Positions 3,416-51,907 of a stretch of DNA of 64,000 bases are shown piece by piece (positions within the stretch are counted from its first letter, which is position 1; each line of letters opens with the position of its first letter). This DNA comes from Hydrolagus colliei. Taxonomy: Eukaryota. The position numbers and the translations under genes were made by a program. The stretch spans positions 28,396,001-28,460,000 of the forward strand of contig CM068742.1 of NCBI GenBank assembly GCA_035084275.1. The letters are read 5' to 3'. The notes under the pieces are model-generated. The model made no database searches. It was not told the origin of the DNA and was given only the letters and a program-made list of their open reading frames with translations.

Positions 3416-5555
3416 AATAATAAACATCAGAAGTGTCTCGATTAACTAAGTTTGGGGAGATGGAAAAGCAAGCTATGGGTGTGTTTGTTAAAATTACTTT
3501 CTCCTACATTGTCAGTGTTTCTGTGACATGCATTAGGAGCTCATCCTGATGTCCTGAATATAAAATTGTTATTGTTGGAAACGGAAAACATATGATCAGA
3601 CATGGTGTGGTCAGAGACAATGTGGTCAGACACGTGACAAGACAAATAACTTCAATCATCAGGTGACCATTGTCAAGACAGTGATGCGCATGAATTATCC
3701 GGGCAGCCTCCCTCATAAAGATATTTATCACCAGCTGAGACATCTCCTCTGTTACTAATGAAGCTGGAGTACTCAAAGCACATTTCAGTTGGTTCTAAGT
3801 CTTGACTAGAAATATATTTTAAATCATTGCATTCCACTTCTCACATTATCCAGAATATTATGTTTTTTGAATTGTAAAAGCAACCAGTGATAATTGATTT
3901 AGTTTACAGAGAATATTACGATTCTTGGAGACATTTACCACAGTAATGTATTCAGTGAAAAAAACCATTAGGGAACATTTTGGCCTTTTGTTTCTGAATT
4001 TGCGAAATACATGCAAGCGCACTGTGCAGAAAGGTTTAGAAAGGCAGAAAGTTGCTTTCAACAATGCACATTGTTGTTTCCACATACTAAATTGTGAAAG
4101 GGTTTCAAAGTGATGACAAGCATCTTGAACTCAATCCTCTGGGAGATGGGGAGCCAGGCAAGGATGGGGTTGATTAGCTTATGGAGCTTAGCGCAAGAGA
4201 GGACATAAGCTGCAGAGTTACTTGTTACTCTTATTTTACTTGTGTAAGCGAAAACACCAAGTCTTTAACCCCTTTATATACCTTAATGGACTGCTATTAG
4301 TAGCACTGCTATGGGATAAATACACTATGAAATAATTTTACAGAAATACCTTTATAAAATTGAATAGAATGATGCCATTATTGATAAGAGTTGACATAAA
4401 TGCTTTGGATACAATAATAATATAATCATCCTTGCATTTGATATAGTGCTTTACCATATCGTCTCAAAGCATTTCACAGAATTTCACTGTGAAATGCAAT
4501 GACTGTATTTGTAGACTAACATGACAGCCAAATTCACTTTTCTTTTTGAATAGTGCCACAGAATCTTTAATGTTCACTTAGACCCGCAGGAGGCAGGAGG
4601 GAACAAGGAGAGATGGCTGAAACAATACAGGTAGAAATGAATGAGAGACCATAAAATACAGTTTGTTATGGTAGGGTAGACGAAGGGAGTGTGCGGTAAT
4701 CATCCTGAAGCAAGTTTCTGGAACTTGCCCTCACAGCAGCAAGAAGTGGGCATTAAAGGATTGATGCTTTTACGAGGATTGAAAGGCAGTGATTCACTCG
4801 AGATTGTACATTGCACATTGCACTGACCTTGTGAAGTAATGATCAGGACCCCCACCCAAACATTGTGATAAAACATCTCTGAGCCTCTTGGACATCTCCT
4901 ATTAATTTTCACTGCAAATCTTCACATTGTGCCACACATGGTCACGTCAGTTTCTGGGGCTGGGTGTGATTACTGTGTGAGGGCCCATCTGCAATGAAAC
5001 ACCATGAATTGGACACCTGTTGGGGTTGTCAATGAAACAAATGTCTTGCAAACACCTCCGGATCTAAACTGGGAATATAATTATGCAGTTGATTAAAATG
5101 CTTATTAGGAAGTGAAAACATACCCAATACCAAGCCTGAATAATGATTGGTCCATAGGGACAGATGCCCGATTCTGTTATAATAAATTCAAGAGAATGCT
5201 CTCTTTGAATTGTTGATGGCTCAGGGGGAAAATAGGAAGATGAGAACTGGTCAGCACATTACACAAATCAAAGTTTTCTGAAATGTAAAGCTGACTTTTT
5301 ATTTAGGTTCATCTATCACATCATCCGTGTCTCTAGATCTCATCTCATTTAAAAGCTGAATGTGCAGCTACTATATTTCTGAGGAACAAGTGAGGGATAC
5401 CACATAGATTCCCCTGGGCTACTACATTTACACATTTTGTGTATGAACATCCCTGACCATATCCATAGACCCAGATGTGATATCACATTAAGACATTCAT
5501 AGGTGTTTTGTGCTTATTCTACCTTTCCATAGCTAAATAACCAAATTCAGACTTC

Positions 5556-28245: not shown

Positions 28246-29198
28246 ACAACAACAACAACTTCGATTTATATAGCGTCCTCCATGCTGGATGGTGTCTCAG
28301 AGCGCTTTACTATAGCGGATCCCGGGACCGAGCTAGGGGCAGGGGCAGAAAGGTGACCAAAAGCGCAGTTGAAAAGAAAGGTCTTCAGCTGTGACCTGAA
28401 ACTGGGAAGAGAGGGGGAGAGGCGAAGGGAGTGAGGAAGGGAGTTCCAGAGCCTCGGGGCGTGGTGGCTGAAGGCACGGCCGCCGAGGGTTGAGCAGAGG
28501 ATTTGGGGGACATGGAGGAGGCCAGACCCAGAGCAGCGAAGGCAGCGGGTGCTGGGTTGGGGGGAGAGGAGATCAGAGAGATAGGGGGGTGCAGAGGAGT
28601 GGAGGGATTTAAAAACAAGGGTGAGGATCTTGAAGTCGATCCTCTCTGGGATAGGGAGCCAGTGAAATCTGGCAAGGACTGGGGTAATGGGGGAGCGAAG
28701 CTTGGAGCGGATGAGTATGCGGGCGGTAGAATTTGGGATTAGCTTGATTTTGTGGATTGTGGTGGAGGGGAGACTGGCGAGGAGGGCGTTGCAATAGTCC
28801 AGCCGAGAGGTGACAAAGGCGTGGACCAAGGTTTCAGCGGCTTTTGGGGTGAGGTATTGCCGGAGACGGGCGATCCATCGGAGGTGGTAGAAGGCAGTGC
28901 TGGTGACGGACCGGATGTGGGGGAGGAAGGACAGTTGGGGGTCGAACCTGATGCCTAGGTTGTGCACAGGTTCGGAGAGTTTTAGGGGCAGGCCGAGAAG
29001 GTGGAGGAGGTGAGAGCCATGTGAATGGAGATGTTGATGAGAGCCAAGGAGTATGGCCTCTATCTTATCAACATTCAGCTGCAAGAAATTTGCGCTCATC
29101 CAGCACCTAATGTCTGAAAGGCAGGCTGACAGAACATCAGGGGTCTGGGGGTCGCAAAGTGAAGTGGAGAAATAGAGTTGTGTGTCATCTGCGTACAT
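28246..29198 (-). mobile_element. L2 LINE (subfamily B), uninterrupted RT C-terminal ORF
   Basis: ORF 28266..29327: MYADDTQLY..WMSANFLQLN..NLGIRFD..LVHAFVTSRLDYCNALL..HWLPIPERIDFKI; 5'-truncated at the YADD motif. Confidence 0.95.
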
Positions 29199-30197
29199 CA
29201 CTGTCAAGCACTCTGGGACTCTACCCCACCCTGTTGTTGTTGTAAGTGTAAATGAGGATTTCGGATGTATTGGGGTGAGATAGGATTGAGGGGGAGGGGC
29301 ATTGTTGTGGAGTACTAATTTACACATTGTTTGAAGAATGTAGTGTACACCATTCTGATAACCTAGCCCTGTTATAGTAAGAAAATCTTTACTCTACTCT
29401 CACACTCCTCTGATTAATGGGCAGTCCTCCCATGCTATCCATAAGATGTGCTAATAGAAAGCTTTCTAATCTCCAGAGCTATAAGTGAATCTTCCAGGCT
29501 TTACTGCAACATGAAGGTAGCTAGGAGACATAAATATTCTGAGTTGAATGGTTTTATATTAAGGTGCTAATTTTATTTCAGGAATCAGGTTTTGAATTAA
29601 TTTAAGCTTCTCAATTACATTTGACTTTGAAGGTTGCATTTGTTATTGATATAAGAACAATGATGGCAGATATGCCACGGCAGCAGGATAAGAGGGCACA
29701 AGTTTGGGGCTTTGAAATGTAGTTATAAGACTGACACCAGGAAGTATTTTCTTTCACTGAAGGAAAAAGCAGCAGGAAAAGGCTGCCTAGAAGGATGATG
29801 GAAAAATACAAACATCTTTTATGTTCTTGTGATTTTGAAACTTAAAGTGTGCGTGTATACTATGATGATAATACTGTACTTTGTTGCACTTCCATGTTAG
29901 GTGGTAGGAGGGGAAGATTGGGAATCACTCTGCTGGATTAATTTGAGTGGAGTTGGCTAAGGCTGTGAAGTGGCCAATCTAGGAACAGGTGGGATGAGGA
30001 ACACTTTGTCACTATACAAGGTGTGGAGTAGGTGGCAGATGATGGGAGGGCTGACGGTTAATTGAATCTCCAACACAACGCCTTCCAATACAACAACAAC
30101 AAAATTACATTTGTATTGCACATTTCACGTCAGGAGGACGTCCCAAGGTGCTGGATAGTCAGGGATTCAAAATAGGCAGGAGCAATGCTCTCCCAAT

Positions 30198-47691: not shown

Positions 47692-49120
47692 TGTCTTTAC
47701 ATCAATTGGTTAGACAGACACACAGGCAGAAATTTCGTCTTTTTAATATGGATAATCCTTGCATTTGATAAGATAACAATTGATAACAATCCCCCCAATT
47801 AATTGGTCACTCACTCATAGTTGTTTGTGAAACATTATTGTGCGCACCTGGCTGATGCGTTTCTTAATTAACAATCTATCTCTGGGATTTACATGTATAG
47901 GTGGGATGCATGGAATTCACAAAATACAGTCGATCCATTTCCTGTGAGAGATGTCTCGATAACGTATAAGGCACTATATCAATGAATTATTTTTTTTACA
48001 TTTTGTCATTGCCATAGTCTAATAAAAAGGCCCGACAAGCTCAATGAGTTCAATGGTCTATTGCTGCTCCTATGTTAATAAAAAAAGGAAACTTTGTGCA
48101 ATGTGATGCAATGTTGTGGTGTCTGATTTAGAAGCTAGAAGTTGGCAGTTAGACTCAAGGCCGTACGCAGGGGGGGTGCGACGGGTGCGTACGCACCCCC
48201 CCCAAATTATAAAAGGTCCACATTTTCCGGGGTAGAGAATTGCATTTTTTATCAAATTTAAATACCAAGTAAATTTATTGAACATTTGTGTAACAATCAG
48301 TTCTTCAAAACTATGTATAAATTATAAACACGCATCTTTGAATGATTTAGTATTAATATAAAATTATCGAGTCGCACACCAGAATCGGCGTCTACCCCAA
48401 AACATACCGCGTCGATAGACCAGTCCATGACGCGGCGAGTCTGTGACTCGTGATTGGATAAACATTGGCGCCAAGACTCAAATCCTCGTTTGGAAATCAT
48501 CCCGTAAACAGCCACAAGGGACAGCACCAATTCTGGAGTTAAAATCATCTTTTCATCTGATCACCGTAAGTACAAATTACTCAAGTGTTGAGAGGTGTGA
48601 CTGTAATGCTAGCAAACAATGACAACATATTTACAAGCTTCTGAGAACTTAAAGCTTTTGAGAACCCAACAAAAAAGTTATATGTGTCTGGACGGGAATG
48701 CCTATCTTTAACAAAAATACTCATGGACATAGACCTATGCTTTAGCGCCTATTCCACATGGTGTGTCAATCGGAAATCATCCCGTATACAGTCACTACAT
48801 AAAAAGGTAGCACCACTTTGTGGAAGCTGAAATCGTATTTTAATCTGATAAATGTAAGTAAAAATGACTTAAGTTTTGATAGGCGTGTTTCTGAAATATC
48901 ATGTTTCTTGTTTTGTCTTGATTATCACATTTGATTTATATTATTAAAAATGTATTCCAGTAATTAAAAATTGCTTTTAGAGACGTCCACTGGCGTGCAA
49001 AAAACATATGACCGCAAAGATAAACAGTGCTACTTTATTTCACTTTCAGTTTTGTACCCAGAGTGAAAAAACATCAATGTCGCACGAATTTGGCATAACA
49101 AAAGCTGATCGAGCGAACTC

Positions 49121-49370
49121 TGGCATTGTCCATAGCACTATGGACAGTTTCCTCCCGGCTTCTCCAGCTGTGTCCGCTAAACCTAAGACGCCTCTGCGGT
49201 AATGTCTGTGATACCAGTGTGGTAGTGTACCATATAGCTCACTATTTGTCAGATGCTGTCGCCAGTAAACGTTCAGGGCGTCTCTTACAAGCCTGGTATA
49301 TACCTCACGAGTCACCTAATCTCCTGGTCGAGGTTTGCCTAAGTGTCCAGCATTCTGCTCCGTATAGGAG
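49121..49370 (-). pseudogene. RTE-clade retrotransposon ORF C-terminal fragment, frameshifted
   Basis: Across frameshifts reads LLYGAECWTL..YTRLVRDALNVYWRQHLTNSELYGTLP..QRRLRFSGHSWRS..VLW, characteristic post-RT motifs of RTE elements. Confidence 0.82.
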
Positions 49371-49490
49371 CGACTTTCAGCCCTCGCGTTAATGCACATT
49401 CATTATAATATGGAAATCGATATTGGTAGAGCGGTTGACGTATTCGCTTCAAAGCGACCGAGGCGTCTCGAATACGGAACGCTATTAAAT
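49368..49490 (+). pseudogene. hAT transposase C-terminal dimerisation-region remnant
   Basis: ERLSALALMHIHYNMEIDIGRAVDVFASKRPRRLE matches the RLsxLALxxIhxxxxIDxxxxxxxFaxxxxRR end of Tip100/THAP12/ZMYM1-type hAT transposases. Confidence 0.85.
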
Positions 49491-50582
49491 AATGAATTTC
49501 CCCTCCCTTATTTTTTCAAGTATTTTTTCGTCAGATCAGTATTGCTCGATGGGTCACTTCCTTTAATTTTGATTCTAAATAAATAAATAAAAACTAACTG
49601 CACTATTGCTCACAGTTCAACGATATTTTCAGGATAATGCTGATAACAGGCTTGTAACACGTGTGAATTAACTGTTTGACACTGATTTTCAGTTTCTGTA
49701 TATTTTCTTGTCTTTTATAAAATTTGCTTTGCTGGAATATCTGAGCACAATATTCATACTTTACTCTTACATTATTGTTCATTACAGTCCGAAAGAAATT
49801 TAGTCTTAGGATAACAATGCAGAACAACTTATTAATTACCGTCAATCTGTAGTTTATGATCATTTTCTCTATACGCATACATTTATCAAGCATTCGTCAT
49901 TGTACTGTGTTAATTGGATTGTAATTTACTTTATCGTTCGCATTCCTTACATCATCGAGTCAACAATCGTGTTGGCTTTTATCGGCGAACACATTCTACC
50001 TTCCCAATTAGACACGGACTACCGGGGAAAATAAAAACACTGAATAAATAATGATGCTCTTAAACACCAAGGGCATGAAACATTTACCGTTCATATTGGA
50101 TCTTCTGAATCGATTAAATAAGACCTCAAACTGTGTAAAACGTCGGAGCCTCGAGGGGGCCTCGGGGGCAGCCCCCAAGCCGCCGGCCATTGTTGGTCCC
50201 ATCACTAGCAATTCGCACCCCCCCAAAAAAAATCCTGCGTACGGCCCTGAGACTTTACCTAGAACACTGCAAATCCCTTCTAACCCATTGGCCTTGCAGT
50301 AGACCTCTGTGACAGAATGAGGCTGCCATTTATTATAGTGCAATATAGGGTCCGTCGATATGGAAATTTTCTGATTTAGATATATCGATGGGCTCATATC
50401 GAGATATACCGATATATCGATATTTTCGGGGATTTTATACTGCGCATGCGCGCACGTTGCGAGGTGTGCACGCATTTGGGGTCTATCTCCTCAGGAAGTA
50501 AATATCTCTCTCTCTCTCTCTGTGTCTCTCACACTCACGCTCTCCATCTCTGTGTTTTTCTGTCTGTGTCTCTATGTCTCTC

Positions 50583-50760
50583 NNNNNNNNNNNNNNNNNN
50601 NNNNNNNNNNNNNNNNNNNNNNNNNNNNNNNNNNNNNNNNNNNNNNNNNNNNNNNNNNNNNNNNNNNNNNNNNNNNNNNNNNNNNNNNNNNNNNNNNNNN
50701 NNNNNNNNNNNNNNNNNNNNNNNNNNNNNNNNNNNNNNNNNNNNNNNNNNNNNNNNNNNN
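50583..50760. other. Assembly gap (178 N)
   Basis: Run of N. Confidence 1.
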
Positions 50761-51088
50761 ACATCCCCCCCGTCTCTCCCCCCCCCGTCTCTTCACCCTC
50801 CCCCGTCTCTCCCCCTGTCTCCCTCCCCCCCCAGCCATCTATCCCCCTCCTCCCCGCCGTCTCTCCCCCCCACCGTCTCTCCCCCTCCCCCGCCGTCCCT
50901 CCCACCCCCTCCGCCATCTCTCCCCCTCCCCCGCCGTCCCTCCCACCCCCTCCGCTGTCTCTCCCCACCCCGCCGTCTCACCCCCCCCCGCCATCTCACC
51001 CCACCACCCTCTCTCCCCCCCCACCTTCTCTCCGCCCCCCCCACCGCCGTCTCTTCCCCCTCCCCTGCTGTCTCTACCCCCCACCGCC
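50761..51088 (+). repeat. C-rich minisatellite (CCCCGCCGTCTCTCCCCCT-like) inside the hAT element
   Basis: Degenerate ~17-nt repeats; G-quadruplex-prone opposite strand. Confidence 0.9.
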
Positions 51089-51907
51089 TTGGTCTGTGCA
51101 TTGTGTATAGAGATGACCATTCTGGGTCTTGTAATTCAGTGCGTGCGCATTCCGATTTTTTCGATATATCGATTTTTCGATACTTTGAAAATGCCTATAT
51201 TGGCATATCAATATGTAAAATATATCGGATATAACTGATATATCGATATATCGCCAGACCCTAGTCCAATACATATCCTACTTTGACAATAAGGTAAGAC
51301 ATAAACAGTTGAATTCCATTAGGATAAACCCATTCCAAATTGAAAATAAATCCAACCCTGGTACAAATAGGACACCAGATTTCTTATGGAAATGCTTCCA
51401 GACAGTTAGCTTTACTTGTGTTAAGGATGAGTGAACAGGCTTGCATCAAATTCAGGCCAAATCTGCTGAACTGCTACCAATTCTCCTCGGGCTCAAAGAC
51501 AGGCTAAAGATTTGGCTCAGCTCCAACCTCTAGTTTACTTCTGGGAAAACAGATGTGAAACAAATGACACAAAATAAGTGTCCACACCTTGCAGAATTTT
51601 CATCAAATGTGTACCCAAACCACCAACCAATGTCTGGAGACCTTGACATTTCATTAGCTGACTTACACTCAACCAGTTTTTAATCTCTCTTCTGCTCTTT
51701 TCCTTTCTATTTCATTCCAGTGTTCCCATCTCCCCCCTTTCCTCTCTTCTCTTCACTTCTCCTCTCTAGCTCTCTTCTCTGCAGTCCTCTCCTCTCTTCT
51801 CTCTTGTTCCATTGAATCCAACTGCTTTTTCCTGGCCCATTCTATAATCTCAGTCAATGAATATCAACAAGTTATTTGATCACTGCTAAACATGTAATCT
51901 ATGCATA

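Follow-up and report, generated by a model that had tools for sequence, protein, structure and literature searches.

The window, a stretch of 64,000 nt whose own positions are used as coordinates throughout, contains a non-autonomous transposon that arose by deletion from a hAT parent of 4.6-4.9 kb. Both ends were kept, the transposase was deleted and the family was amplified. The element duplicates 5 bp of its target instead of the 8 bp canonical for hATs, and the family is young. We consider it quite probable that this young 5-bp hAT derivative, likely moved in trans, belongs to a family that likely reached its host from invertebrates by horizontal transfer with a piece of a LINE retrotransposon aboard. 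With less assurance, we also lean towards a more specific scenario, in which a 5-bp hAT recently crossed from a marine invertebrate into the cartilaginous-fish lineage, where it would still be polymorphic, together with a dead LINE that never spread there.

Target-site duplications of the window copy and of its family

The features of the window copy are collected in Table 1. Its two terminal inverted repeats (TIRs), 16 bp each, are identical at 15 of 16 positions. The sequence AGACT lies on either side of the element, and the 8-bp flanks on the two sides differ. The TIRs, the 5-bp target-site duplication (TSD) and the mismatched 8-bp flanks described in the initial annotation were thus confirmed, at the same coordinates. 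However, AGACT differs from its reverse complement at a single position, and a 21-nt arm is given by the repeat finder. The window copy alone is therefore ambiguous, as AGACT could be read as a TSD or as part of a 21-bp TIR, and for this reason other copies were examined.

Table 1. Features of the transposon copy in the window
Feature	Position	Strand	Remarks
Left TSD, AGACT	48151..48155	+	single AGACT at empty site
Whole non-autonomous hAT element (2.1-kb subfamily)	48156..50249	+	2,094 bp; empty site omits exactly the element + 5 bp
Left TIR, CAAGGCCGTACGCAGG	48156..48171	+	16 bp; 20-bp left end matched in host genome
5' non-coding part	48156..49128	+	bases 1-988 of full-length L093, 94.5%
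Internal direct repeat, ~110 bp	48492-48599 and 48772-48887		~74%; inside 5' non-coding part
Final codons of captured LINE ORF	49105..49128	-	LINE tail and one copy of 9-bp duplication deleted here
Middle piece, captured 5'-truncated LINE	49133..49379	-	frameshifted C-terminal ORF
3' end	49368..50249	+	bases 3695-4577 of L093, 96.8%
Last 41 transposase codons	49368..49490	+	residues 810-850 of P0002
ACTTTCA microhomology	49373..49379	+	junction of ~2.6-kb deletion including transposase codons 1-809
Right TIR, CCTGCGTACGGCCCTG as read on +	50234..50249	-	reads CAGGGCCGTACGCAGG on minus strand
Right TSD, AGACT	50250..50254	+	single AGACT at empty site

The exact left 20-bp end occurs 629 times in the host genome, as compared to 0 for the reversed control. 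A first copy search, in which the best 40 of 1,674 candidates were scored, gave at least 36 near-full-length copies with 94-100% identity. Among 30 fetched copies, two of which (L007 and L008) have common flanks, an exact TSD of 5 bp was observed in 26 cases, of 7 bp in one and of 8 bp in none. A larger set was then drawn from 202 pooled host-genome loci, many of them unrelated or lacking one end, which left 115 distinct two-ended insertions. An exact 5-bp TSD surrounds 88 of these, with 81 different 5-mers among the 88; randomly paired flanks matched over 5 bp in 45 of 19,839 trials. Exact duplications of 6 bp and of 7 bp were each found at 4/115 insertions. Three more insertions show 5 bp with one mismatch and two show 7 bp with one mismatch; one TSD is ambiguous within a microsatellite, and 13 insertions have no TSD. 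An exact 8-bp TSD, the canonical mark of hATs such as Ac, Buster and Tip100, was found at 0 of the 115 two-ended insertions. At positions 2 and 4 of the target there is a weak preference for A/T. The 5-bp length proposed from the window copy thus holds over many copies.

Contigs from three of the four public runs connect position 48150 directly to position 50250. They omit 2,099 bases (2,094 + 5) and leave one AGACT, as the proposed duplication predicts. The contig from run X2 shows 0 differences from the window over 403 bases and is read as coming from the same species; the same site is also empty in runs of two other organisms. Because the X2 empty site has identical flanks, the window insertion is polymorphic or heterozygous, and therefore recent. 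The other copies and the empty site also refute the reading of AGACT as part of the element or as a chance repeat, with a true TSD of 8 bp or none: in spite of the near-palindrome and the 21-nt arm, this is practically dismissed by the diversity of the 5-mers (81 in 88 copies), the count of 0/115 at 8 bp and the one AGACT at the empty site.

Some of the copies without TSD form pairs (L038/L100 and L253/L273) in which one flank is common and the other is not, and the flanks of L245 appear inverted. The common flanks suggest recombination between copies; for these five loci, inter-copy recombination or rearrangements made by the transposase are possible. A very abundant repeat, whose inverted ends are rich in GATATATCGAT, starts 92 bp past the window element and occupies positions 50346-51253. 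Its depth is high in all four runs and it is partly N-masked.

The full-length parent and its transposase

Full-length copies with both ends in common were found at L093 and L107 (both 4.57 kb), L096 (4.87 kb), L095 and L097. The open-frame parent L093 is flanked by a GCCTC duplication. The transposase frame has 850-851 codons from stop to stop, or ~846 aa from the first ATG. Out of 64 transposase matches in the host genome, two are full-length without stops. An autonomous-type partner, whose existence had been anticipated from the window copy, is thus present in the genome.

The parent proteins P0001 and P0002 match PF05699 (hAT dimerisation) at 35-36 bits, for a cut-off of 21.4, and PF14291 (DUF4371) is also over its Pfam cut-off. 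A BED finger gave no Pfam match in the parent transposase. Searching the PDB with the P0002 sequence gave nothing below E 0.1, and Hermes surfaced by fold search alone. With the structure model of the transposase (pLDDT 78), the ten top Foldseek matches listed are all Hermes (4d1q, 8edg, 8sjd); the 12 fold matches at E<=0.001 all rank before any non-Hermes row, ten of them being the listed Hermes entries. Residues D353, E790 and R513-W514 are found in 29/29 aligned relatives, E790 sitting within a low-confidence stretch of the model, and D418 in 28/29 with one gap. The transposase also has C446-x-x-H449. By comparison with Hermes, D353/D418/E790 would be the catalytic triad, R513-W514 the RW motif and C446-x-x-H449 the CxxH motif. 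Among five long copies, picked for their open or near-open frames, dS is 0.026-0.047 and dN/dS is 0.51-0.87 over 10 pairs, below the neutral value.

Copies fall into size classes of ~2.1, 2.25, 2.6 and 4.6-4.9 kb. The three shorter subfamilies stem from internal deletions at microhomologies. In the amplified families, the sequence between a point within the LINE and codon 810 has been deleted at an ACTTTCA microhomology, and a further ~150 bp is missing from the 2.1-kb subfamily; the mean distance within this subfamily is 1.7%. The window copy accordingly reads from parent bases 1-988 through LINE sequence, in two pieces separated by the ~150-bp deletion, to parent bases 3695-4577. The hAT transposase C-terminus noticed in the initial annotation is real. 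It comprises the last 41 codons only and was recognised via the full-length parent; Pfam gave no match on the window copy's own fragments, including this C-terminus alone. The transposase stop codon is mutated, with G at 49494 where other copies have T. Elsewhere in the window, a scan of 23 of the 33 long ORFs for host genes returned only an RT fragment and one match below cut-off. A 375-codon frame at 28269-29393 on the minus strand, with a weak RVT_1 match, is a LINE fragment.

Window-type copies would be mobilised in trans by the parent's transposase through the ends they retain. By analogy with Hermes chemistry, the transposase would bind the TIRs and subterminal DNA and excise the element. 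Strand transfer would then join the element ends to the target in the Hermes manner, at points on the two strands that are 5 nt apart or now and then 6 or 7 nt, and gap repair would make the duplication.

Copies L091 and L098 are interrupted by a host LINE distinct from the captured one, which is abundant and has long open frames, and the 5' part of L056 is inverted. Near-identical long copies lie ~130 kb apart at G000:C3:104.1-104.86 Mb and short ones 1.4-2.9 kb apart at C28:8.63-8.64 Mb; both clusters are probably segmental or tandem duplications. The summed contig depth of the element as compared to unique flank was ~1e5 against ~21 in run X2 and ~13 against 3 in run X11. This depth, not taken as copy number, hints that a single species underwent the large amplification.

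Relation to the hAT5 group

The hAT5 group reportedly goes back to Kapitonov and Jurka in 2007. In PMC12730594, the names hAT5, hAT6 and hAT7 are given to hAT families according to their TSDs of 5, 6 and 7 bp, and hAT5 is placed in a lineage that includes Blackjack. According to PMC9004415, hAT5 was previously known from some invertebrates and fish, a single ancient hAT5 fragment occurs in four tetrapod genomes, and the Hydra protein hAT-13_HM is the hAT5 reference. Expression of hAT5 in Hydra is described in PMC12220107. The element 'hAT5_DR' of PMC3517528 was discarded as a member, being a Buster element with a clashing name.

The family has the characters of the hAT superfamily: a dimerisation domain and a Hermes-like fold with its motifs, both in the parent transposase, and short TIRs. 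A hAT transposase associated with a 5-bp TSD fits the operational definition of hAT5; the assignment is by definition, not by sequence kinship with Repbase hAT5. The non-autonomous hAT5-type label of the initial annotation agrees in this sense with the definition in PMC12730594 and PMC9004415. The antisense LINE, the minority of 6- and 7-bp duplications and the signs of horizontal transfer are additions to that annotation.

In order to survey the clade, 80 metagenome loci were kept from 571, of which 16 have a gene flanked by a pair of CAG-type TIRs. The TSD is 5 bp for ten of these pairs, 6 bp for one and 8 bp for one, with no exact TSD for four; 13 of the 16 come from one record series, so that few families are represented. 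These 16 loci have 32-46% identity to P0002. In the FastTree phylogeny, the 6- and 8-bp cases nest in otherwise 5-bp families, and the 5-bp trait reaches relatives at 35-40% identity. When other DUF4371 elements of the host genome were considered as 8-bp controls, no convincing TIR/TSD pair was found at 17 loci. A separate 8-bp hAT does lie at L227:963-7747 (G000:C3, ~78.25 Mb), with the exact TSD TGTGCTGG and CAGGGCC-type ends. Its transposase remnant is 36% identical, and the 5-bp family has a full-length copy, with TSD TAGTA, nested inside this element. L216 and L217 (G000:C6, 30.81-30.83 Mb) are THAP12-like ORFs, nearly identical and ~16 kb apart; the frame of one continues to 1,467 codons, with a long repetitive tail rich in Ser, Val and Pro.

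An origin of the 5-bp lineage within the DUF4371/THAP12-like hATs, separate from that of Repbase hAT5, is conceivable. Such an origin, which we hold to be unlikely, would affect classification only and would be compatible with our preferred explanation. Host THAP12-like genes are indeed among the wider relatives in FastTree, and the close relatives are all named 'THAP12/P52rIPK-like' or 'ZMYM1-like', names that are assigned to the Tip100/Zaphod group. Such names contrast with the Blackjack lineage in which PMC12730594 places hAT5. However, the 5-bp trait spans relatives at 35-40% identity, and a clade with such a wide range of marine invertebrates is what one would expect of hAT5. The reference hAT-13_HM is moreover a Hydra protein (PMC9004415), and a Hydra cluster is the third-nearest here, possibly of another family.

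The LINE cargo, the origin of the family and its known counterparts

Upstream of the transposase, the longest parents carry in antisense the 473-bp 3' end of a LINE. It has a CATCATCAT tail and its own 9-bp duplication, AAATAGTTT, with copies 482 bp apart. The cargo is an ordinary 5'-truncated retrotransposition. Its reading as a tail-less captured fragment absent from the parent was rejected, since the longer copies show tail and duplication. Parents of the L093 type have lost 303 bp of LINE between CCT repeats. A LINE protein match is found in 114 of the 115 copies and the remaining one has a 71-bp remnant.

The middle piece, as read from copy L096, is 89% identical over 85 aa to P0170, an intact relative known as an 11-member cluster from metagenome contigs. 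Another metagenome protein, P0180 (345 aa), reaches into the RT domain and matches RVT_1. Longer relatives carry endonuclease and RT, those with names coming from a ctenophore and a sea urchin (51-53%). By its C-terminal motifs, the cargo may be an RTE/RTEX-clade LINE. The part of this LINE not carried by the transposon gave no match in the host genome in one search and 34% at best in another. With the whole of P0180 as query, the best 117 of 2,427 host-genome candidates all start at residue 193 or beyond, residue 193 being the truncation point of the cargo, and no free LINE copy was found among these 117. The 18 LINE matches that were inspected are all within the transposon. Four further runs also contain the element, LINE included, at ~96-99%. 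In runs X11 and X9, the depth over the LINE equals that over the rest of the element, with no loose end at the LINE 5' junction among those shown. Insertion of the LINE likely took place in a previous host, after which the transposon would have carried it along as a stowaway. RT frames of 1,058 codons are repeated on the small G000 contigs C7, C8, C9, C12, C60 and C188, and a tandem array of RT frames with ~3.3-kb spacing occupies C6:81.49-81.53 Mb.

The nearest transposases are P0003 (80.5% identity) and two proteins of the vent snail Gigantopelta aegis (83.8% and 79.4%; XP_041364202.1 and XP_041374266.1), which lie on 82- and 42-Mb contigs. They are followed by a cluster with Hydra vulgaris members (65%), by coral, sponge, lancelet, urchin and brachiopod proteins (~44-55%) and by three teleosts (44-46%). 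No relative was found among viral contigs. Phylogenies were built with FastTree (89 rows) and, for a 24-row subset, with IQ-TREE. With SH-aLRT 100, the host copies cluster with P0003 and the snail proteins, inside a Hydra/Stylophora clade (100) surrounded by cnidarian, sponge, brachiopod, lancelet and urchin branches; P0003, host and snail are an unresolved trio in IQ-TREE. The teleost transposases are a separate clade in both trees. A joint vertebrate clade of host and teleosts, a group chosen for the AU test after the FastTree result had been viewed, was rejected (p-AU 3.7e-7). Two genes of the host itself were placed in chordate clusters. As snail and Hydra proteins are nearest, teleosts reach only 44-46% and the joint vertebrate clade is rejected, the family likely entered the fish lineage by horizontal transfer. 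The invertebrate context of the tree, together with the orphan LINE, points to a marine invertebrate as donor and a fish as recipient. The LINE would have inserted into the transposon in an earlier host, and the transposon would have reached the fish lineage horizontally from a marine invertebrate with the fragment on board. No earlier report of the family or of its transfer was found in the open-access text searched or in passages of PMC7895826.

It is unlikely that the same 5-bp hAT descended vertically in the fish lineage or came from another vertebrate, with a fish as source for the snail, or a third host as source for both, and with a LINE that inserted in the fish lineage and later died out. 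The trio in the IQ-TREE phylogeny does leave the direction unfixed, the element with its LINE occurs at ~96-99% in three other organisms, and the metagenomes of P0170 and P0180 could contain fish DNA; P0003, P0170 and P0180 themselves could derive from other fishes. However, the neighbouring branches run from cnidarians to lancelet and urchin, and a LINE active recently enough to have an 89%-identical relative should leave free copies, of which none was found. The equal depths in X11 and X9, and the lack of a loose 5'-junction end among those shown, also argue for arrival of the LINE inside the transposon. It is very improbable that the closeness to the snail proteins comes from DNA of one species contaminating the assembly of the other: 79-84% is unusually high between chordate and gastropod transposases, but it is far below 100%, contigs are chromosome-scale on both sides, at least 629 left ends are present in the host genome, and its flanks there are shared with empty sites in independent runs.

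Already known are 5-bp hATs as a type and marine transfers into vertebrates. What is likely new here is a young hAT5-type family that has open-frame parents and a leaky TSD length, with an orphan LINE as the marker of its likely origin in an invertebrate. The literature searched gave no structure or assay of hAT5, which is named in few papers. Two open-frame transposases with a 5/6/7-bp spread offer a way to test, against Hermes, what sets the hAT target stagger; if an open-frame transposase does cut with staggers of 5, 6 and 7 nt, it would be a live model for change in hAT duplication length. The spread is also a warning that TSD length alone does not separate hAT5, hAT6 and hAT7 cleanly. The orphan LINE would bring independent, internal evidence for invertebrate-to-vertebrate transfer and a precise donor probe; if its history is read correctly, it is a passport stamp naming the donor lineage.

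As compared to known systems, the 6- and 7-bp lengths that define hAT6 and hAT7 occur here within one family, in ~8/115 copies. Hermes, which makes 8-bp TSDs, has the same fold (Foldseek E 2e-7) and, by the motif assignment given above, the same acidic triad, RW and CxxH motifs; it differs by an identity of 13-16% and by the BED finger, for which Pfam gives no match in the present transposase. With the DUF4371/THAP12 (P52rIPK)- and ZMYM1-like hATs, the family has PF14291, PF05699 and CAGGGCC-type ends in common, as in the L227 element, whereas the TSD is 8 bp there and 5 bp here, and host THAP12-like genes are ~26% identical. The hAT5 group, reported from invertebrates and fish, has the same combination of hAT transposase and 5-bp TSD. 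In contrast to its ancient tetrapod relic (PMC9004415), the present family is young, numbers hundreds of copies and includes both open-frame parents and an insertion that is polymorphic. As in marine transposon transfers into vertebrates described in PMC7070016 and PMC7846101, a transposable element is closer to those of distant marine animals than to those of other vertebrates. Those transfers took place between vertebrates (93.7% with ray-finned fishes) or brought LINEs into sea snakes, whereas the present case is a DNA transposon with a dead LINE fragment, an internal marker of the likely earlier host.
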